NCBI RefSeq assembly: GCF_004010195.1
Contig: NC_057718.1
Location: forward strand, 88,393,355 to 88,457,354
DNA length: 64,000 bases
Source of the DNA: Chiloscyllium plagiosum
Taxonomy: Eukaryota
Reading direction: 5' to 3'
Every line of letters starts with the position of its first letter. Position 1 is the first letter of the stretch. Shown here piece after piece: positions 12,643 to 57,690 of the stretch. The notes beneath the pieces were generated by a model that saw nothing but the letters and a program-made list of their open reading frames with translations, made no database searches and was not told the origin of the DNA. Both the position numbers and the translations under genes were made by a program.

Positions 12643-15033
12643 GATTCTGGGTAATCCAAGATGGAGAATGGAAAAAATTTCAGCTTGTAACAGGTGCTCC
12701 TTTTTTAAGGTATTTTAGGTGTTGAAGGTGATTTCCTCAAATTCCAGGAACAGCAATTACTGTTTTATATGCTGTTGCATTGTTTTGGAACTTTGGAGAA
12801 AAAAAGTCAAAACAACGAAGGTTACTTCAGATTACAACAGAATCTGGACCAGATGGGCCAATGGGCCAAGAAGTGGCAAATGGAGTTTAATTGAGATAAA
12901 TGCGAGATGCTGCATTTTGGGAAAGCAAATCTTAGCAGGACTTATACACTTAATGGTAAGGTCCTAGGGAATGTTGCTGAACAAAGAGACCTTGGAGTGA
13001 AGGTTCATAGCTCCTTGAAAGTGGAGTCACAGGTAGATAGGATAGTGAAGAAGGTGTTTGGTATGCTTTCTTTTATTGACCAGAGTATTGAGTACAGGAG
13101 TTGGGAGGTCATGTTGCGGCTGTACAGGACATTGGTTAGACCACTGTTGGAATATTGTGTGCAATTCCTTCCTATCGGAATGATTAGATGAGATTAGATT
13201 AGATTCCCTACAGTGTGGAAACAGGCCCTTCGGCCCAACAAGTCCACACCGACCCTCCGAAGAGCAACCGCCGCCACCCCCCGCCGATTAATGTACCTAA
13301 CACTATGGGCAACTTAACATGGCCAATTCAATTGAACCTGGACCCTGGGCTGTGAGGCGGCAGTGGTCATAGCTGAGCCATTGTGACGTAAGAATTGGCC
13401 CCAATGATTCAGTCAACATTTTACTGGTGGCAGGGGAGGAGGGTGCAAATTCAATATAATTTTCCCCCCTATATTTAACAAAAACCTTACCAAGGTGCCC
13501 TGTGGCAATTCGGAGACATTTGGGAGAGCAGGGAGATACTGAAGTGGAGAGATTAGATAGTGTTTGACCCATTGTTGGGGACTGCCAGTTTTAGGATTCC
13601 TAACTTTTAGCAGGACACTCCATTACCTCCGCCCCATTCATTAACCTGACTGAGGACATGGGTCAACTTTCTCCCCCCTCCCCTGTTTTGTGCGAGATGA
13701 AGGAGAGTCAGCATCATCATGTCACCTCCGAAAATAAAACGTCTTGGATAGAAGAATATTCATAAAAAAGGAAATTAAGAAAAGCTAAAAAAGTACATAC
13801 ACGACATTCCATTAAATACAAAACGTTAGAGACTGAACCAAAGTCCAGATACTTTGTTATAAAGATGCTGCCAGACCCCCAGAGCTTTTCTAGCAATTTC
13901 TAGTTTTGATTTGGTTATCAATGTTGTATTAAGCTTTAACAGATTGATAAGATTAGATTAGATTCCCTACAGTGTGGAATCAGGCCTTTCAGTCCGACAA
14001 GTCCACACCGACCCTCTGAAGAGCAACTCACCCACCCCCGACTAATGCACCTAGCACTATGGTCAATTTAACATCGTCAGTTCAACTGAGCCTGGCACCC
14101 TGGGGCTGTGAGGCAGCAGGGGTCAAAACTGAGCCACTGTGACGTAAGAATTGGCCCCAATGACAAAGTCAATATTTTTACTGATGGCAGGGTTGGAGGG
14201 TGCAAATTCAACAAATAATTTCCCCCACTATATTTAACAAAAGCTTTGCCAAGCTCAGTCCCTGTGGCAATTCGGAGACATTTGGGAGAGCAGGGAGATA
14301 CTGAAGTGGAGAGGTTAGATAGTGTTTGACCCATTGTTGGGGACTGCCAGTTTTAGGATTCCTAACTTTTAAGCAGGACACTCCAGACCCAGTCTCTCCC
14401 CCTCCGGGGAGGTAGTGAGGGGTAAATCAGGGCCATCCGTAATTAACACCCACATATCCCTACTCCCTAACATTCCTGCATCCCAGACTTGGGACCAGCA
14501 GTGTCTCCCCCAGCCCCATGCACTCACTGATGTTGTGAAACTTGAAAGGGTTCAGAAAAGATTTACAAGGATGTTGCCAGGGTTGGAGGATTTGAGCTAC
14601 AGGGAGAGGCCGAACAGGCTGGGGCTGTTTTCCCTGGAGCATCGGAGGCTGAGGGGTGACCTTATAGAGGTTTACAAAATTATGAGGGGCATGAATAGGA
14701 TAAAAAGACAACGTCTTTTCCCTGGGGTGGGGGAATCCAGAACTATAGGGCATAGGTTTGGGTAAGAGGGGAAAAGATATAAAAGGGACCTTAGGGGCAA
14801 CGTTTTCACACAGAGGGTGGTGGGTGTATGGAATGAGCTGCCAGAGGAAGTGGTGGAGGCTGGTGCAATTGCAACATTTATAAGGTGTTTGGATGGGTAT
14901 ATGAATAGGAAGGGTTTGGAGGGATATGGGCCAGGTGCTGGCAGGTGGGACTAGATCAGGTTGGGATATCTGGTCAGCATGGATGGGTTGGACCGAAGAG
15001 TCTGTTTCCATGCTGTACATCTCTATGACTCTA
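12643..15033 (+). mobile_element. Internally deleted CR1/HER1 LINE (5' UTR fused to ORF2 3' end), split by the 13185-14527 insertion
   Basis: 12643-12816 matches the reverse complement of 60950-61132. ORF2 motifs LHFGKAN, LVRPLLEYCVQF | DVVKLERVQKRFTRMLPGL; ctatgactcta tail. Confidence 0.85.
13185..14527 (-). other. Antisense duplicated copy of the 5' end of the AKAP12-like intron (16583-17508, then again 16739-~17160); probable retrocopy
   Basis: Reverse complement begins GTGAGTGCATGGGGC, the intron donor, and ends in an (aatct)n SINE tail. Flanked by TGAT at 13181-13184 and 14528-14531 within a CR1. Confidence 0.85.
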
Positions 15034-15130
15034 AGTGTACTACAACCTCTTCAATTAGCAACCACATGAAAAATTTCACTGGACAATGTCAGTGACAAGT
15101 TGACAGGGAATTAGTAAAGGGTTTTTTTTT

Positions 15131-15407
15131 TAGATTACTTACAGTGTGGAAACAGGCCCTTCGGCCCAACAAGTCCACACCGCCACGCCGAAGCGCAAGC
15201 CACCCATACCCCTACATTTACCCCTTACCTAACAGTACGGGCAATTTAGCATGGCCAATTCACCTGACCTGCACATCTTTGGACTGTGGGAGGAAACCGG
15301 AGCACCCGGAGGAAACCCACGCAGACACGGGGAGAATGTGCAAACTCCACACAGTCAGTCGCCTGAGGCGGGAATTGAACCCGGGTCTCTGGCGCTGTGA
15401 GGCAGCA
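15131..15407 (-). mobile_element. HE1-type V-SINE (young, CpG-rich copy)
   Basis: Near-identical reverse complement of 46111-46415. Confidence 0.9.
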
Positions 15408-15569
15408 GGTTGGGGTAATGAAAATCCTCCTTTACAGTTGTTGAATGTTTTATCTGTATTTCTGTCCTGCAAGTCATGTAAATTGAGGGATCCACCAATT
15501 CAAATTACCATGGAATTTGGGAAACAATCAGGTGCAAATGGCCTATCCTTGTTTCAGATTTAGCCTTAG

Positions 15570-15830
15570 AATGACAGAGGAAATGCTGCAGTGTCAGTGT
15601 TGCCTTTCACAACTAGCAGTGTTTCAAATCAGAGCAGGGCGGTTTTCCCCAGATTTCACCACAGCCACAAACAATATCACTAAAACACACTATTTGGTCA
15701 GAGCTACGTTGCTGATGATGTGATCTTGCAGTATGCAAATTAGTGGCTGTTTATCCCACCTCATAATGGTAACTAATTATGCTACTAAGGGTATTTGACT
15801 ACTTATAGTTTAAAACATTTGGGGGTGCCT
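15570..15830 (+). mobile_element. Old SacSINE1/Deu-type SINE remnant
   Basis: aagagcagggc..ttccc..aatatcactaaaac..ttgctg..gcaaatt pattern shared with 27760-28100 and 45725-45990. Confidence 0.5.
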
Positions 15831-15839
15831 TTTAGTCAG

Positions 15840-16492
15840 CTGCAGAGGCGTGAGAGAGAGGCATCTTTTTATGTTTTGCTCAGTTTTTCTGCGTGTTTGT
15901 TACACATTTTAAATAGTTGGGACTTGCGCTTCTGACTAAATATCAGAGAGCTTTGAGGGGTGGGAGTGGAAAGCGGTTGGCTGCCGCTTCCTTGGTCCCT
16001 CCCTGTCCTGTTTCCTATTGGTTCGGGATCAGATTTTGGACCACGAAGAAGCCAGGAGATTGAGGATAGTTATAGAAAGCAGTCTGGATTGGAGTGGAGG
16101 GACTACAGTGAGAGACTGCATAGAAGGAGACAATCTGTCTCAGGAGCTATAGGGTCGAAGTCTGAAGCCAGGACAAGAGGGGCGTTACAATATCCAGCCT
16201 GATCCTAGAGGGGGATCAGTGTCCAGTCTGACCCCTGAGGAGGGGCGGTGTGAGGGAAAGAGGGGGTTACAGTGTCCAATCTGACCGCAGGGGTGGGGAG
16301 GGAGATATTAAGTCTAGCCCCAGGGAGAGTGATGATGGTAGTGTCATTCTGAATGCGGAGGGTCTCAGTGAGTGGAGCTTCGGATGGTGAAGCCGAGCGG
16401 TTTAACGAGCAGTCTGCGGGGGCTTGCCCACAGGCCGAGCTAGGGACCTGTCTTGCCTTGTCTGCCTGAATGACACCCCGAAAATCTGGGAG
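15840..16492 (+). promoter_or_regulatory. Putative CpG-rich promoter / 5' UTR of the AKAP12-like gene
   Basis: Local CpG and GC enrichment relative to flanks. Inverted CCAAT (ATTGG) near 16017 and 16088, GC box GGGGCGG near 16242, directly upstream of the ATG. TSS not determinable. Confidence 0.5.
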
Positions 16493-16582
16493 ATGGGAAG
16501 CGGCATCTCAGCGCAGGAGCCAGACCAACCCAGCCCGAGCGAGCAGCAGGAGGGACAGCGCACTGAGAGAGTGGACGGAGGG
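16493..16582 (+). CDS. AKAP12: First coding exon of an AKAP12 (gravin)-like A-kinase anchoring protein: MGSGISAQEPDQPSPSEQQEGQRTERVDGG
   Basis: ATG in strong Kozak context (gagATGg) in a CpG-rich stretch. MGxxxS myristoylation motif. 90 nt followed by a canonical GG|gtgagt donor (phase 0), in phase with the exon at 57579. Resembles the AKAP12 N-terminus (MGAGSS.../MGATPS...); a paralogue is not excluded. Confidence 0.72.
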
Positions 16583-16940
16583 GTGAGTGCATGGGGCTGC
16601 CGGGGGGGTGGAGAGAAACACTGCTGGGTCCCAGTCTGGGATGCAGGAATGTTAGGGAGTAGGGATATGTGGGTGTTAATTACGGATGGCCCTGATTTAC
16701 CCCTCACTACCTCCCCGGAGGGGGAGAGACTGGGTCTGGAGTGTCCTGCTAAAAGTTAGGAATCCTAAAACTGGCAGTCACCAACAATGGGTCAAACACT
16801 ATCTAACCTCTCCACTTCAGTATCTCCCTGCCACAGGGACTGATCTTGGTGAGGTTTTTGTGAAATATAGTGGGGGAAATTATTTTGTTGAATTTGCACC
16901 CTCCTTACCCCTGCCATCAGTAAAATGTTGACTGCGTCAT

Positions 16941-17163
16941 TGAGCCACTGTGACGTAAGAATTGGCCCCAGTTGTGACCACTGCCGCCCCTCAGCCCCAG
17001 GGGGCCAGGCTCAATTGAATTGGCCACGGTAAGTTGCCCATAGTGTTAGATGCGTTAGTCGGGGGCTGGGGGGGGAGTTGCGCTTCAGAGGGTTGGTGTG
17101 GACTTGTCGGGCCGAAGGGCCCGTTCCCACACTGTAGGGAATCTAAGCTAATCCAATCCATCT
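16941..17163 (+). mobile_element. Internally deleted HE1-type SINE in intron, with micro-inverted head
   Basis: accactgccgcc..., aattggccacggtaagttgccc, gtgtggacttgtcgggccgaaggg and a gggaatctaagctaatcc tail. Confidence 0.75.
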
Positions 17164-17849
17164 GTTAAGACTTAACACAACGTGGACCTAACGAACATTG
17201 ATATTCAAATCAAAATCAGGAATTGCTGGAAAAGCTCAGGGGGTCTGGCAAGGTCTTTATAACAAAGTATCTGGACTTTGGTTCAGTCTCTAACGTAGAG
17301 TACAATGGTTTTATTTAACGGAATGTCGTGTGTGTTACTTTAGCTTTTAAAATTTCCTTTTGTTTTTGAATATTCTTCCATCCAAGACGTTTTGTTTTCG
17401 GAGGTGACACGTTGATGCTGACCCTCCTTCATCTCGCACAAAAACCGGGGAGGGGGGAGAAAGTTGACCCATGTCCTCAGTCAGGTTAATGAATGGGGCA
17501 GAGGAAATCTTTTATGAAAAAGACTATTAGCGTGCCTGAGCGCCAATTAAATTCTCTCTTTCTATGACTGTCTGGATAGACTTACAAAGCATATGTTACC
17601 ATATTGGGAGCGCATTGAAGATCATCGAGCTATGTGAACGAAGGCGATGCTGTGCTAGCGAGGATGAGATGTCCGCAGGCTTTATATCCAGCTCCCTACT
17701 CTTTCATTCCAAATGACTGGAATTATAATGAAAAGTGGAGTCTGCAATACAAATTCCTGGGAAAAAGAATTAGCATTTTGACAGCTGGAATTTGTATCAA
17801 CTATCTCTAATCTCTCACTCTTAATCAGTTTTGTGTTGTGTAGATTAAC

Positions 17850-23780: not shown

Positions 23781-24029
23781 TTATCTTGTTCCAGCAAGTA
23801 GTCAAGAATATGAAGCATTCTGTATTGACAATTATTACTACGTATTGAATAAATTTATTCTGGCCTTGATGTGTTCATACCGATATGAACACATCTGGAG
23901 TTTGTGTTCCCAGCTGTGACTGTACTGATTTCAAGTCTTCACTTCACTTGCCTGAGTATTAATTGGGCAGATCCTCAGTGGTGCTTTCAGCTACTTAACC
24001 GATGAGCTGGAGTTTGCTCCTTCAAAGAC

Positions 24030-24335
24030 AAAGATTTGTCCCTGCGGTGGGGGAGTCCAGAACTAGAGGGTGAGAGGGAAAGATATGAGACCTAAGGGGC
24101 AACATTTTCACAGAGGGTGGTACATATATGGAATGAGCTGCCAGCGGAAGTGGTGGAGTCTGGTACAATTACAGCATTTTAAAAGGGATTTGGATGGGTA
24201 TATGAATAGAAAGAGTTTGGAGGGGTATGGGCCGGGTGCTGGCAAGTGGGACTAGATTAGGTTAGGATATCTGGTCGGCATGGACGAATTGGACCGAAGG
24301 GTCTGATTCTGTGCCGTACATCTCTATGACTCTAA
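24030..24335 (+). mobile_element. CR1/HER1 3' end
   Basis: Standard 3' UTR ending ctctatgactcta. Confidence 0.8.
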
Positions 24336-26053: not shown

Positions 26054-26825
26054 TGTTTTGGACCAGACAAAACCCCTTAAAATATATTAAGAAGATAGTC
26101 TAGACTCTAATTTTTTTTTAGTTTAAAGTTCTGTTGTTTTCCGGATGCAATTCGATTGGTCAAACTACCAGGCTTGAAATAAAACACACTTTATTCATAC
26201 ACTATAGCTAAAAGACAGATGAAAGAAAAAATTTGGCTTAACTGTAACTCAATCAAAATGCTTAATAAAATGAGATGTGCTCCGATTAATTTACTGTTTC
26301 AATACAGTAACATACCATAAGCATGCCCTCAAAGGCAAATTCACTAAAATAGATTGTCACGTGTGCAATTCTAGCACAGGGAGTTTTTAGCTGTAATTGA
26401 TGAATAGGAGCTTCCACATCCAGCTTCAAAACCCCAGCAACTGCAGAAAGCTAAAACTAAAAACCCTGGTCTTTGTCTTTGAAGGAGCAAACTCCAGCTC
26501 ATAGGTTAAGTAGCTGAAAGCACCACTGAGGATCTGCCCAATTAATACTCAGGCAAGTGAAGTGAAGACTTGAAATCAGTACAGCCACTGCTGGGAACAC
26601 AAACTCCAGATGTGTTCATATCGGTATGAACACATCAAGGCCAGAATAAATTTATTCAATACATAGTGGAAATTTGATTCCACCTATTCAGGCTGCTTCT
26701 ATTGTTCCAACTTTTGTTTTTTAAAAAAACACCCAATGCCTTGCAAGCTGTTTATTAAACTTGAACAGACTGCTCTCCACCTCATTTTAAAAAAAAACAC
26801 CTTCTAAAGTCATAGTATCATCACA
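26054..26825. mobile_element. Solo LTR related to the Gmr1-type LTR at 61229-61900
   Basis: TG...CA termini (tgttttggaccagac...catcaca) and a 5-bp TSD gtttg (26049-26053, 26826-26830). Start resembles tgttatggaccaggcc at 61229. Confidence 0.75.
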
Positions 26826-28522: not shown

Positions 28523-29764
28523 GGATAGAATTCATCCATTTGCCAGGTTGTGTCGCAATCAGCTTGCTGTAATTTTTAAAAAAAACAGTCCAAGCTGAAT
28601 GGAGTGTGTTGTCAGAGCAAGCCTATTTTCCCTTGGGCATAGTTTATCTGATTAGTCAACTATCTCAGCAGACCAGTTCGTTTCTGGAGTTGGAGGAGCC
28701 CAGCTTTTGGATTGACTCAATTTAATGACTTAATTCAGTCAGTGCTAGGTATGACCTTGCTCTGAACTGGAGTCATATGGATTCTATTCCATGTGACCCA
28801 ATGACAATCTTGTGGTGCAGTGGTAATGTCCTTACTTCTGAAACAAAGTCTGAGTTTAAGGCCTATCTGCCTCAGATGGTGTAATAACTATTGCTCAGTG
28901 CTATACTACTGGAGTAAGCTGACCAGTCTGAGGCTTATTTCTGTAGTAAGCTCTGTGACTACATGATTCACTTTCTGTGACCAAGCCTCAGATGAGGTAA
29001 TCGTAGAATCTTAAAAGAACACCCTAATCTCTTCAAGTACACATTTTATTTCAGTTGTCTACTGAAAAGTTTGTGGAATCATCTGACGCCTCCATTGTTT
29101 AATGTATTCCAGATCTTAGCAACCCTTTGCAAAACTTTCTTTTTTCTAATTATTTTAAACCTGTGACTTATGGATACTGATCTGAGATGGAGTCTTCTAA
29201 AGTCTTTCCTTGTGATACCTCTGTAGCTGCAATTTCCTCTCTCCATTTTATTGTGTAATGTAATGATTTAGCAGCAGACATCTCCTGCAGAATGAGTCCT
29301 ATCTTGCAGCAGAGGTGAAGGATCGTGATGCTGTGGCAGTGAATGGGATTATCTATTTGAGCAGCTCAGCTGGAATCCCAACCTTGCCAGGTGCCTTTCT
29401 ACTTAGAAAGCAATCAATGGCTTTTTTCAAGCTCAAGTGATAAGGGTTCTTCACTTAATTTTGACCCTGACAGGAAGCTGTGGGATAGAATTCCTCCATG
29501 TGCCAGGTTGTGTCACAATCAACTTGCTGTAATAACGAAAACAGTCCAAGCTGAATGGAGTGCGTTGTCAGAGCAAACCTATTTTTCCCTTGTGATTAAT
29601 TTATCTGATTAGTCAACTATCTCAGCAGACTAGTTAGTTTCTGGAGTTGAAAGAGCCTAACTTTTGGATCGGTTCAATTTAATGACTTGATTCAGTCAGC
29701 GCTAGTATGACCTTGTTCTGAACTGGAGTCACATGGATTCTATTCCATGTGACCCAATGACAAT
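28523..29764 (+). repeat. Dispersed direct duplication, ~285 bp (28523-28808 and 29483-29764)
   Basis: Both copies read ggatagaattc...acagtccaagctgaatggagtg...ttctattccatgtgacccaatgacaat with scattered substitutions. Confidence 0.9.
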
Positions 29765-37800: not shown

Positions 37801-38942
37801 GTAAAAACAATGACTGCAGGTGCTGGAAATCAGATTCTGGATTAGTGGTGCTGGAAGAGCACAGCAGTTCAGGCAACATCCAAGGACCAGCGAAATCGAC
37901 GTTTCGGGCAAAAGCCCTTCATTAGGAATNNNNNNNNNNNNNNNNNNNNNNNNNNNNNNNNNNNNNNNNNNNNNNNNNNNNNNNNNNNNNNNNNNNNNNN
38001 NNNNNNNNNNNNNNNNNNNNNNNNNNNNNNNNNNNNNNNNNNNNNNNNNNNNNNNNNNNNNNNNNNNNNNNNNNNNNNNNNNNNNNNNNNNNNNNNNNNN
38101 NNNNNNNNNNNNNNNNNNNNNNNNNNNNNNNNNNNNNNNNNNNNNNNNNNNNNNNNNNNNNNNNNNNNNNNNNNNNNNNNNNNNNNNNNNNNNNNNNNNN
38201 NNNNNNNNNNNNNNNNNNNNNNNNNNNNNNNNNNNNNNNNNNNNNNNNNNNNNNNNNNNNNNNNNNNNNNNNNNNNNNNNNNNNNNNNNNNNNNNNNNNN
38301 NNNNNNNNNNNNNNNNNNNNNNNNNNNNNNNNNNNNNNNNNNNNNNNNACCTGACCAGGTAGTCACGGAGGGAACGGTCTTTGCGGAAGGTGGAAAGGGG
38401 TGGGGAGGGAAATATATCCCCGGTGGTGGGGTCTTTTTGGAGGTGGCGGAAATGTCGGCGGATGATTTGGTTTATGCAAAGGTTGTTAGAGTGGAAGGTG
38501 AGCACCAGGGGCTTGTTATGGTTGGAGAGGTGGGGTCTGAGGGCGGAGGTGCGGGATGTAGATGAGATGCATCTTTAACCACGTGGGAAGGGAAATTGCG
38601 GTCTCTAAAGGAGGAGGTCATTTGGCGTGTTCTGTGGTGGAACTGGTCCTCCTGGGAGCAGATATGGCAGAGGCGGAGGAATTGGGAATACGGGATGGCA
38701 TTTTTGCAAGAGGTAGGGTGGGAAGAGGTGTAATCCAGTAGCTGTGGGAGTCGATGGGTTTGTAAAAAAAGAAAATGTCCGTGTCAAGTCGGTCGTCATT
38801 AATGGAGATGGAGAGGTCCAGGAAGGGGAGGGAGGTGTCAGAGATGGTCCAGGTAAATTTAATGTCAGGGTGGAATGTTGCCGGAAACGTTGGATGCTGC
38901 CTGAACTGCTGTGCTCTTCCAGCACCACTAATCCAGAATCTG
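37801..38942 (-). mobile_element. Penelope-like element, 5'-truncated within RT, with inverted 5' pLTR; contains the assembly gap
   Basis: FHPDIKFTWTISDTSLPFLDLSISI (PLE RT C-terminus). 12-bp TSD ccatccaatatg (37789-37800, 38943-38954). Inverted pLTR copy at ~38885-38942. Confidence 0.88.
37930..38348. other. Assembly gap (419 N)
   Basis: Run of n. Confidence 1.
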
Positions 38943-55029: not shown

Positions 55030-57578
55030 TTTGGTGAATGGACCAAAACTGAGGTAGAATTGTTGGACTGGCTGAGTCCTGAACGCCTTATTTGATTTCC
55101 AGCTCTGCACATAATTCATGGTTTATGTCTTCATACTCTCTATTTTATACTGGCTTTCAATCTTTTGTACTTTGGCAATTGATGTTGAACTGTAGTTTTT
55201 CATCCCTCGTCACCACCCTTCCCAGTGCAGATTTAATGGGCTGAATGGCCTCTTTCTGCACTGTAGCGATTTAGTCATTCTATGTCTGACCCTTATTGAT
55301 TCCAGACCCACGCATCAGCTCTTCTGAAGTGTCTCAGCAAGCCTTTCTGTATCCTCCGAATGGACAATAAATTCAGACCTTGCCAGCATGTCATCCACAT
55401 TCCGGGAATCAATAGGAACAAGATAATATACTGCTTCAGCTATTTACCCCATCTTCCCTGCAAATGGTTTCTGCCTTGAGAGATTTGTTGTCTGTCTGTC
55501 TTGGTTTTCATCAAATAAAAACTGATATTTAGCAGCTATTTGTCACACACCAGTGGAGGAGATGAGATGCGCTGGGTGCCTTTGAGGCACATTGCAATAT
55601 GCAAATCTTATCAATAATCAGGAGTCTGAATGTCTGTGGATCCTTGCATTTAAAAGGGAATTTTTTTTCGCTTGTTGAATCAGGCTCAAAGGTCCTGTGG
55701 CCCCTAAGGGATTTACCAGCTCCCTATCTTAAACCCACCTAAACAATGGGTGTTGCTACACTCTGCTGATTATATGTCCTTATGCTCAGACTGGCTGGAA
55801 GGTCTAGCCTCCATCTTCCAGTAGTTACTTGTAAGTCTTTGGTGTTCTCCCTACAAAGAGGTTTCTGTTAATGGTAACACAGAATATCTCACCCCCTTCT
55901 GCAAAGAACGATGTGGTTGCAAGAATTAAAGCAGCAGGCTGAATAAAAACCAAAATGAATGAGAGAAGTACAAGGTTACTGAAGTAAACATGAGATTTTC
56001 TGCTTGGAGAGAAAAATATGGGCCATGTTAGAATCCATCTTGTGCCTGTGGTTAAATAAAACTCCACCTGAATCTGGTTGAGATGTTTGTATCTAGTGGC
56101 AGTCAGTTGAAGATGTAAATTTAGCAGGAGCACATTAATCAGGGATAGTTTGTGTAGTCCCAGCTATGTTAGTTTGATTGTTTAATGGTGTATGTACTGG
56201 TCGTTGTTCCAGTTTGCTTTCTGAAATTTTGCTCATACAGAGTGTAAAATCCTAAGTGTGGAAGGATGTGTGTGTGTGCGCTGAAAGAGCTACCCAACGA
56301 ATTGCAGTCCCTGGAAGGACAACAGGAACATGGGCCATTCAGCCCATCAAACCTGCTCGACCATTGCTTAGGATCATGGTCAATCTATGTCAATTCCATT
56401 TGCTCACCGTGATTTGATTTACTATTGTCACATGTACCTAAGTATAGCTCCACTGCTGTTCATGTGGAAAATGCCTTTCCCAATTCCATTCTTTAGTCTA
56501 ATGTTAAGATCTGATTTGCTCACATATTTAAAAATAACAAATTTAAAATGCTTTATTCACATCAACCCACTGTAAATTTCTATACTTCAGGCAATGGAAG
56601 CCAAGGTTATTCGGTTTTTTAACTCTTCAACTCCAATAGCATTTTCATCCCTATACCTTTAATTCCAAATCAATCTCATTTCCCTTTTGGTATTTGAATT
56701 TGCTTCTGACACTTTTTTTTGAGGCAGCAATCCAAATTCTCAGTAGCTGTTACAATCTTTTTATTATTCTTCTCTTTTTTTGCTAATTATCTTGAATCTG
56801 TGTCCTCTAGTTTTCAGTCTCCTGACTGAAAACTATTTCTCATTTTATTTCATTGAAAGCTCTCATTGGAATATCACATTCCCTGCATTCAGACTTGAGC
56901 AGAGATGGGTGTGACAGAACCAGAGCATCTTGGAATGTAGAATGTGTCACTTGAGTGTGTTTCTGTCCTTCAAAAGATTCACTGTTTCTCTTCAGAAACA
57001 TGAGCAACATGTCAACAGGAAGAGAATATCTGCTCCCTATAGCCTGTCTCTCTCAGTCCTGATAATCTTGTGCGTAAATAAACTGCTCTCTCTACCCCTG
57101 TCTGAAACTGTAGGATCCCTTAGCTGAGAGAGGCAAATTATAAGCCTTGAGGTTTATGTAGAGTCCCTACAATGCAAATAGAGGACATTTGGTCCATTTG
57201 AGTCTGCATCAATCCTCTGAAGAGCATCCCATCCCATCCCCCATAACCATGTATTTACCATAGTTACCATATTTACCATAACCATGTAGTCTGCACGTCC
57301 CTGAATGCTCTGGGTCAATTTAGAATGGCCAGTCCACTTCAGGTGAGGGCCTAGTCTTGGATATTATTCTGACCTGCTTTAGGTGACAGAGTAACCTGAG
57401 TGAGCACTCTTTTCCTGATGATTCTATTGTTTGCTGTTTTGTATAAGGTCATCCCTACCCTTTCCAGTAACCGGCCCAGCTCTGAGAGATGTGAAACTTT
57501 GGGTGAATGTAGTGTATGTCATTGTTAAAGTGTAAAACTAAAATGAATCTACCCTCACTCACTTCCCTGTTTCAACAG

Positions 57579-57690
57579 CCTGCTCAGGAGAATGGCCAGA
57601 TTTCCGGAATCCATAGTAAATCAGAAGATCAAGAGCCGCTCGATGGAAAAGTGGAGCATCTCAATGTCCAGGAGGAAGCCGTTCGTGAAG
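57579..57690 (+). CDS. AKAP12: Second coding exon of the AKAP12-like gene: PAQENGQISGIHSKSEDQEPLDGKVEHLNVQEEAVRE+G
   Basis: Pyrimidine-rich acceptor (cacttccctgtttcaacag|CCT) and donor GAAG|gtgagt. 112 nt, phase 0 to phase 1. Similar to the AKAP12 exon LLQKNGQLSTINGVAEQDE...VIVTE, which has the same phases. Confidence 0.78.

Follow-up and report, generated by a model that had tools for sequence, protein, structure and literature searches.

In a 64,000-nucleotide stretch of the Chiloscyllium plagiosum genome (contig NC_057718.1, positions 88,393,355 to 88,457,354 of the forward strand; hereafter the window, with positions counted from its first letter), a 1.3-kb insert (13185-14527) lies upstream of the gene AKAP12 and inverted to it, and reproduces the beginning of intron 1 of that gene. 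Both of its outer ends are landmarks of an RNA: one is the first nucleotide of the intron, and the other is the end of the tail of a sense-oriented short interspersed element (SINE) embedded in the intron. We lean, with modest confidence, towards the reading that a CR1-type long interspersed element (LINE) used the 5' part of AKAP12 intron 1, after its excision or 5' cleavage, as a template, with priming at the embedded SINE tail, and that the copy was inserted locally.

Anatomy, copy number and target site of the insert

A BLAST comparison of positions 13100-14650 with the window aligned 13622-14527 to 17508-16583 on the minus strand (82.6% identity over 956 columns), in agreement with the initial annotation, which had described an antisense copy of the intron that starts at its 5' splice site. 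The same comparison revealed direct repeats inside the insert, 13182-13622 and 13942-14385 (87.6% identity), and 13192-13622 also matches 17153-16737 (80.8%). Both ends of the insert had been placed correctly, but it had been taken as colinear with the intron and the second of these repeats had been missed. In the sense of the gene, the insert reads P (16583-16736), D (16737-17153, including the SINE), Sp (17154-17508), and D again; that is, 16583-17508 followed by a second 16737-17153, with two SINE-bearing units. The source segment (16583..17508, plus strand) is the first 926 nt of an intron of 40,996 nt, or its first 2%, without the 3' splice site; its sense SINE occupies about 16955-17160. 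The insert lies on the same contig as this source, inverted and 2,056 bp away, which matches the distance of about 2 kb given originally.

On the window, all four pieces lie on the minus strand. Unit B (13185..13622), the second copy of 16737-17153, consists of 214 nt of intron and an internally deleted SINE (about 13185-13385); the spacer copy Sp (13623..13941, corresponding to 17161-17508) follows, then unit A (13942..14385), the first copy of 16737-17153 with its SINE at about 13945-14142, and P (14386..14527), the copy of the first 154 nt of the intron. The inner junction of Sp and unit B (13622/13623, equivalent to 17508/16737) has an overlap of 1 nt and is devoid of splice signals; GTAAT and TGGAG are retained there. 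Counting substitutions only, insert and source are identical at 135 of 141 aligned positions in P, which also has an indel of 12-13 nt, and at 283 of 317 in Sp. The lower divergence of P (6 differences in 141, against 34 in 317) would fit constraint on the source beside exon 1. Relative to both insert units, the source intron has a 29-bp micro-inversion (16941-16970) covering the start of the SINE head and a 23-bp deletion at about 16829, flanked by a TGC repeat. The apparent closeness of units A and B in the BLAST alignments is due to these two changes, both derived in the source, not to substitutions.

We searched the 3.56-Gb genome for further copies; the source copy was found at 86-90% identity, and much older copies could escape such a search. 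The 143-nt piece that begins with GTGAGT occurs in two places, its own and the source at 90% (two candidates, both scored). Positions 14150-14527 occur in three (their own, the source and unit B). The spacer has two full places, namely itself and its source; its 50 further matches are short and all fall within a single motif of about 50 nt. Apart from that motif, the only repeated part of the insert is the 3' part of the SINE (160 nt), for which 1,917 first-look candidates were obtained. The non-SINE parts are accordingly specific to the insert and its source locus genome-wide; with 2, 3 and 2 full places for the intron-start piece, 14150-14527 and the spacer, the idea that the GTGAGT-starting segment is itself a high-copy interspersed repeat is ruled out. 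The short spacer motif (about 13860-13911, equivalent to about 17215-17265) is present in at least 50 genomic places, often as inverted pairs 100-150 bp apart on one contig, and looks like a miniature inverted-repeat transposable element. Rfam gave no match at E<=1 in 12800-17800, and no other low-copy duplication was found in the window between 9 and 22 kb. A self-BLAST for local flank duplicates at 33 SINE or repeat loci returned only SINE-SINE pairs and one tandem duplication; the latter, of 266 bp at 98.9% identity, lies beside a SINE copy on another chromosome (L018:559-1089).

The flanks of the insert, 12830-13184 and 14528-15033, are one CR1-like LINE copy on the plus strand, which continues in register across the interruption; this upholds the original proposal that the insert splits a CR1, and the break is clean. 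The left part (12830..13184; its left edge is approximate) is 5'-truncated; other CR1 copies can be aligned with it as far as ...cggaa[A/G]GAT, and its last four bases are TGAT (13181-13184, plus strand). The right part (14528..15033) runs from a second TGAT (14528-14531) to the 3' hairpin and tail, and aligns to other copies from TGATgttgtg on. Five of the six other CR1 copies in the window have ...ggaa[A/G]GATgttgtg once, and the sixth is not alignable at this point; the host copy reads cggaaTGAT-insert-TGATgttgtg, with the target kept to the base. Because the CR1 is interrupted and its target otherwise continuous, the insert is the derived copy. If the insertion was clean, the empty site would read ...ggaaTGATgttgtg... 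once. The T of TGAT is particular to the host copy, the five other alignable copies having A or G. The left TGAT can be read equally well as the last unit of the SINE tail, as ...ATCA is present in the tail of unit A. The target-site duplication (TSD) of the initial annotation is therefore present as TGAT on both sides but ambiguous as a 4-bp duplication: the left TGAT may be tail microhomology, that is, templated by the tail, and the true duplication lies between 0 and 4 bp.

The two ends of the insert and the age of its units

Homology between insert and source begins at exactly 14527/16583, with zero exonic and zero extra bases; position 14527 is the complement of G+1 of the GTGAGT donor. 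Across this end, the minus strand of the insert reads ...CACAACATCA/GTGAGTGCATGGGGCTGG and the source ...GACGGAGGG/GTGAGTGCATGGGGCTGC, and no alignment extends past the boundary. By a rough estimate that was not computed, the chance that a copy would end exactly at +1, were its end random over the roughly 1,150 nt of 16353-17508, is near 1 in 1,000.

The donor was placed by aligning gene models of other sharks. In a tblastn search with P0001, a 1,746-amino-acid Chiloscyllium punctatum gene model with a WSK motif (PF03832, a precomputed domain), residues 22-77 align to 16415-16582 and residues 78-113 to 57579-57683. The coding part of exon 1 (16493..16582, plus strand, MGSGISAQEPDQPSPSEQQEGQRTERVDGG) ends in phase 0 at the same position, 16582. 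The 30-codon open reading frame from the ATG at 16493 (MGSGISAQE...VDGG) is 87% identical to P0001; the exon-1 protein query was 40 amino acids long, of which 10 codons read into the intron. Exon 2 (57579..57690, plus strand, PAQENGQISGIH...) is likewise aligned by residues 78-113 of P0001 and by residues 36-73 of P0002, and its 3' end is placed by a GTGAGT only. The acceptor at 57578/57579 is canonical (...tttcaacag ahead of exon 2, read as ...ccctgtttcaacag). A protein search of the genome located the large AKAP12 exon at C9:88488818-88492114 (92% identity to residues 112-1232 of P0001), on the same strand as exon 1 and 79 kb further downstream, and the AKAP12b model of Mustelus asterias has the matching N-terminal architecture, MGAGVSAQE.../PVQKNGQISGIH. 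As expected of AKAP12 (gravin), the part of the host gene that codes for the PF03832 protein lies beyond exon 1 in the same orientation and is joined to it by splicing in the models. These gene-model spliced alignments give good indirect support to a donor at 16582/16583 and hence to a predicted intron 1 of 40,996 nt (16583-57578).

Some other features of this region deserve mention. P0001 begins 47 amino acids upstream of MGSG, and its residues 1-26 and 22-77 match 16353-16582 in different frames; the ATG at 16493, giving an MG... N-terminus, is the likelier start in C. plagiosum. Inside intron 1 there is an assembly gap of 419 N (37930-38348), a pair of 198-bp inverted repeats 2.4 kb apart (23837-24034 and 26470-26667, 98% identity), and a pair of 287-bp direct repeats (28523-28808 and 29483-29764, 89%). 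Both repeat pairs may be the termini of other mobile elements.

The other end of the insert, at 13185, is the (AATCT)n-type tail, on the minus strand, of a SINE with a tRNA-derived head. The tail of unit B, AATCTAATCTAATCTCATCTAATCA, adjoins the CR1 flank, and the unit ends ...GGGAATCTAATCTAATCTCATCTAATCA; among 27 aligned genomic copies, the canonical tail of the family is AATCTAATCTAATCT(C/A)ATCT, which unit B matches. The insert thus does end in the tail of the intron-embedded SINE, as originally read. Within 16583-57578 this SINE is sense-oriented, its tail pointing downstream on the strand of the gene. Compared with the family, the SINE copies of A, B and the source all lack the same internal stretch of about 105-130 bp and therefore descend from one SINE insertion.

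Of the 3' tail that, according to the initial annotation, such SINEs share with the LINE that mobilizes them, the host CR1 has the hairpin but not the tail repeat. The 3' ends of the SINE (13185-13265) and of the host CR1 (14975-15033) form the same two-level hairpin, with compensatory differences in the stem (GUGUGGA/UCCACAC versus GCAUGGA/UCCAUGC); the fold z-scores of the two hairpins are not significant on their own. The tail repeats differ, the host CR1-like LINE having catctctatgactct and the SINE (aatct)n, and the true partner of the SINE is therefore probably a sister subfamily of the host LINE.

To date the units relative to each other, we aligned A, B and the source, leaving out the 29-bp inverted block. 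Of 370 ungapped columns (43 further columns have a gap), 312 are identical in all three, 21 are private to A, 15 to B and 17 to the source, and all three differ in 5. The pairwise differences are 43 (A-source), 37 (B-source) and 41 (A-B), or about 10-12% for every pair. The SINE columns were polarized against the 27 family copies, with a majority state of at least 60% required; among the 138 columns kept, 6 are gapped, 103 unchanged and 29 derived. Of the derived states, A and the source have 9 each to themselves and B has 3; 4 are common to A and source, 1 to B and source and 3 to all three, and none is confined to A and B. As the three are equidistant and A and B have no derived state exclusively in common, a later duplication inside the insert is unlikely; judged from these substitutions, units A and B appear to have been copied together, or nearly so, with the other parts of the insert.

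Two schemes in which the second D arose after insertion were rejected. Simple tandem duplication within the insert cannot turn P-D-Sp or P-D into P-D-Sp-D, and is contradicted as well by the equidistance of A, B and source and by the zero count of A+B-only states. Later repair synthesis from the source, adding D-Sp, predicts that A is closer to the source than B is, and the observed differences are 43 for A and 37 for B.

Possible origins of the insert

The insert has several of the hallmarks of a LINE retrocopy: a tail of the kind that LINEs recognize at its 3' end, a 5' end at what would be the 5' end of an RNA, and a SINE in sense to the gene strand, for which transcription within the intron is predicted. 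In the sequence of events that we favor, a reverse transcriptase of the CR1 ("stringent") type would have reverse-transcribed RNA from the 5' part of intron 1 at a nick in the CR1 element 2 kb upstream of the gene, and would have primed through the 3' hairpin and (AATCT)n tail of the sense intronic SINE, with the target ...TGAT-3' pairing with the tail ...AUCA. Synthesis of complementary DNA would have run from 17153 to 16737 and then resumed at 17508, either by a jump to a second fragment of intron RNA or because the template came from an allele with a tandem 16737-17508 (772 nt) that was later lost. It would have halted at intron nucleotide 1, the end of a template whose 5' splice site had been cut beforehand; the candidate templates are a lariat intermediate, a lariat and a debranched intron. 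The RNA intermediate, the identity of the LINE, and the choices between jump and duplicated allele and between lariat and linear template are what we infer from the anatomy of the insert. The initial annotation had proposed LINE priming on the SINE tail and a stop at the intron's 5' end; the two ends fit this proposal, but a single such run gives only 16583-17153.

Some more specific RNA-based schemes do not fit. Read-through of a lariat branch, or a rolling copy of an intron circle, predicts a junction of the form X/16583, and the junction found is 17508/16737. A back-spliced circle fails as the junction keeps GTAAT and TGGAG, so that no splice signals were used. A processed pseudogene is excluded by the intronic content and by the lack of any exonic base and of an A tail.

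Several observations weigh against the copying of intron RNA by a LINE. A retrocopy is expected to be colinear with one RNA, and the order P-D-Sp-D requires an extra event. A retrocopy is also expected at an unlinked site; a distance of 2,056 bp has a chance of about 1 in a million under random retrotransposition in a 3.56-Gb genome, and so short a distance is typical of duplication at the DNA level. Local capture of the intron RNA must therefore be assumed. This is plausible, because intron RNA exists mainly at its gene, and the short distance could plausibly reflect capture of intron RNA still tethered to chromatin. The TSD is at most 4 bp and perhaps 0; ordinary copies of the SINE family are also without a clear TSD (17 copies, examined by eye), and the TSD therefore does not discriminate. 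In 132 ungapped SINE columns, unit B departs from the family majority 7 times, A 16 times and the source 17 times, and in three of the four columns that are derived in A and source but not in B, A and source have the same base. Copying of A and B from a single sequence would not lead one to expect this. The numbers are small, and of the four columns one is a CpG site and one probably a CpG reversion; the closeness of B to the family could be due to CpG recurrence or reversion, or to a 3' end of B that came from another SINE RNA. Finally, this is one old locus, with no second example.

The strongest competitor, which we regard as an unlikely but serious possibility, is an insertional inverted duplication at the DNA level, in which a break in the CR1, 2 kb from the source, was filled with copies of 16583-17508 and 16737-17153, either by template switching during replication (of the type of fork stalling and template switching, FoSTeS, or microhomology-mediated break-induced replication, MMBIR) or by end-joining capture, so that the ends at the splice site and the SINE tail would be due to chance or to fragile sequence. 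The separation of 2,056 bp, the inversion and the extra internal junction are the usual marks of local template switching; the junction overlaps, of 0-4 nt (GAT/TGAT at 13184/13185, 1 nt at 13622/13623 and none at 14527/14528), are likewise compatible with it, and insertion-based duplications with structural modification are known in humans (PMC7188851). Against this, two of the four breakpoints fall on positions that are defined in RNA, with a joint chance that we roughly estimate at about 1e-5 to 1e-6. A FoSTeS/MMBIR-type process makes no prediction about splice sites or SINE tails; moreover, the target is preserved to the base, and the surrounding 9-22 kb is free of other low-copy duplicates.

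Distinctly less probable is a copy made from RNA without any involvement of splicing, in which reverse transcription began at the SINE tail of an unspliced pre-mRNA, or of some other transcript of the region, and the copy ended at +1 by chance. This scheme has the same 3' features as the one we favor, and 5' truncation at arbitrary positions is common among LINE-mediated copies. An arbitrary end would have to fall on +1 at the odds of near 1 in 1,000 given above, the G/G at -1/+1 is unlike an initiator start, and a block by U1 would presumably fall some bases further into the intron. It is very unlikely that both copies go back to a third element, now lost or unsampled and with an end reading GTGAGT, which supplied the present donor by insertion beside exon 1 in the manner of an introner. 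Apart from the homology block that starts with a splice-donor motif, nothing speaks for it: the genome searches and Rfam (12800-17800) contain no third copy and no match, respectively, the exon-1 end and exon-2 junction are common to the gene models of two other sharks, and 16583-17508 is free of flanking terminal repeats and insertion marks. An assembly artefact, by a misjoined or duplicated contig, has a negligible probability. Collapsed or duplicated assemblies yield near-identical copies, and here the copies differ by about 10-12% in substitutions, by several indels and by an inversion, while both outer junctions lie within a CR1 copy that continues in register.

What the insert would mean differs accordingly. 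Were it to derive from DNA, it would be a small inverted duplication of an ordinary kind, two of whose breakpoints coincide with RNA landmarks by chance. On the RNA reading, it would be a novel form of the copying of cellular RNA by LINEs; what the first step of splicing yields could reach LINE reverse transcriptase in the germline, and a SINE tail embedded in a host RNA would be enough to attract a "stringent" LINE. More tentatively, and at somewhat less than even confidence, we suggest that it is the germline footprint, in a vertebrate, of spliceosomal intron RNA that was tethered at its gene after 5' cleavage, as a lariat intermediate or lariat, captured through the embedded SINE tail by a CR1-type LINE enzyme, copied up to the 2'-5' branch or the free 5' end, and re-integrated locally. 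To our knowledge, retrocopies of cellular RNA are almost all derived from mRNAs, small stable RNAs or intron pieces bearing small nucleolar RNAs (snoRNAs). If the process were general, sense intronic SINEs would allow stringent LINEs to copy the 5' regions of introns instead of mRNAs, and such copies would have splice-site-delimited ends and be biased toward the neighborhood of the source gene. The locus thus bears on duplications made by LINEs other than L1, on local retro-insertion and on the return of intron RNA to DNA, and provides a search image (low-copy, SINE-tailed, splice-site-delimited, near the source) for the annotated genomes of sharks, reptiles and birds.

Comparison with known systems

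The literature that we searched, which mostly leaves subscription journals aside, described no retrocopies with a 5' splice site as their limit or a lariat as their origin; several known systems share some features with the insert. Template jumps of LINE reverse transcriptase reportedly give rise to chimeric retrocopies, as in a tripartite chimeric pseudogene, and end-to-end template switching is said to occur in reverse transcriptases of non-LTR (non-long-terminal-repeat) elements. In the insert both pieces come from one intron, and a tandem source allele explains the junction equally well. Alu elements embedded in 3' untranslated regions reportedly promote processed pseudogenes, with embedded SINEs acting as handles for the retrocopying of host RNA. 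Here too a SINE within an RNA polymerase II transcript would recruit LINE machinery to a host RNA, but spliced, polyadenylated mRNAs and L1 are involved there, and an intron fragment and a CR1-type tail here. Both template-jump chimeras and the assistance of pseudogenes by embedded Alus are known for L1-type elements.

The duplications of Takahashi and Innan (2020, PMC7188851) are insertion-based, at the DNA level and structurally modified. As in the insert, a segment of low copy number returns to the genome at another place with its internal parts in a new order; nothing in those models calls for ends that fall on a splice site and on a SINE tail. The transposition of spliceosomal introns and introners, discussed by Ares et al. 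(2024, PMC11146597), involves, as the RNA reading of the insert would, the return of excised intron RNA to DNA. The insert differs in having made no new intron; only the first 2% of the intron was copied, antisense, into an intergenic LINE.

Type 2 snoRNA retroposons (snoRTs) are described as germline retrocopies of intron-derived RNA with ends set by processing, some of them near the branch point; snoRTs start at the mature snoRNA's 5' end, bear A-rich tails and L1-type TSDs of about 14 bp, and are dispersed (PMC1687206). The likeness lies in the template, which would be an intron-derived RNA rather than an mRNA. The insert contains no snoRNA by Rfam, has no A tail, begins with the first base after the 5' splice site and is 2 kb distant from its source; it was rejected as a snoRT on the absence of an A tail and of any Rfam match at E<=1 in 12800-17800.

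It is established that stringent LINEs recognize tails of this kind and mobilize SINEs that carry them, as also in the UnaSINE/UnaL2 pair of the eel. HE1, with the tail of HER1, is listed for sharks and rays in an account that also describes stringent 3'-end recognition and tail slippage (PMC3747384). The name HE1 for the SINE of the insert is a label taken from the initial annotation rather than from a comparison with a reference sequence. As in these pairs, the insert ends in a SINE 3' hairpin and a short-repeat tail, and a CR1-like LINE with the same hairpin is present. It differs from them in that the copied sequence is 0.9 kb of RNA polymerase II intron RNA upstream of an embedded SINE, not a free RNA polymerase III transcript, and in that its 5' end, if a LINE did copy cleaved intron RNA, would have been set by splicing.

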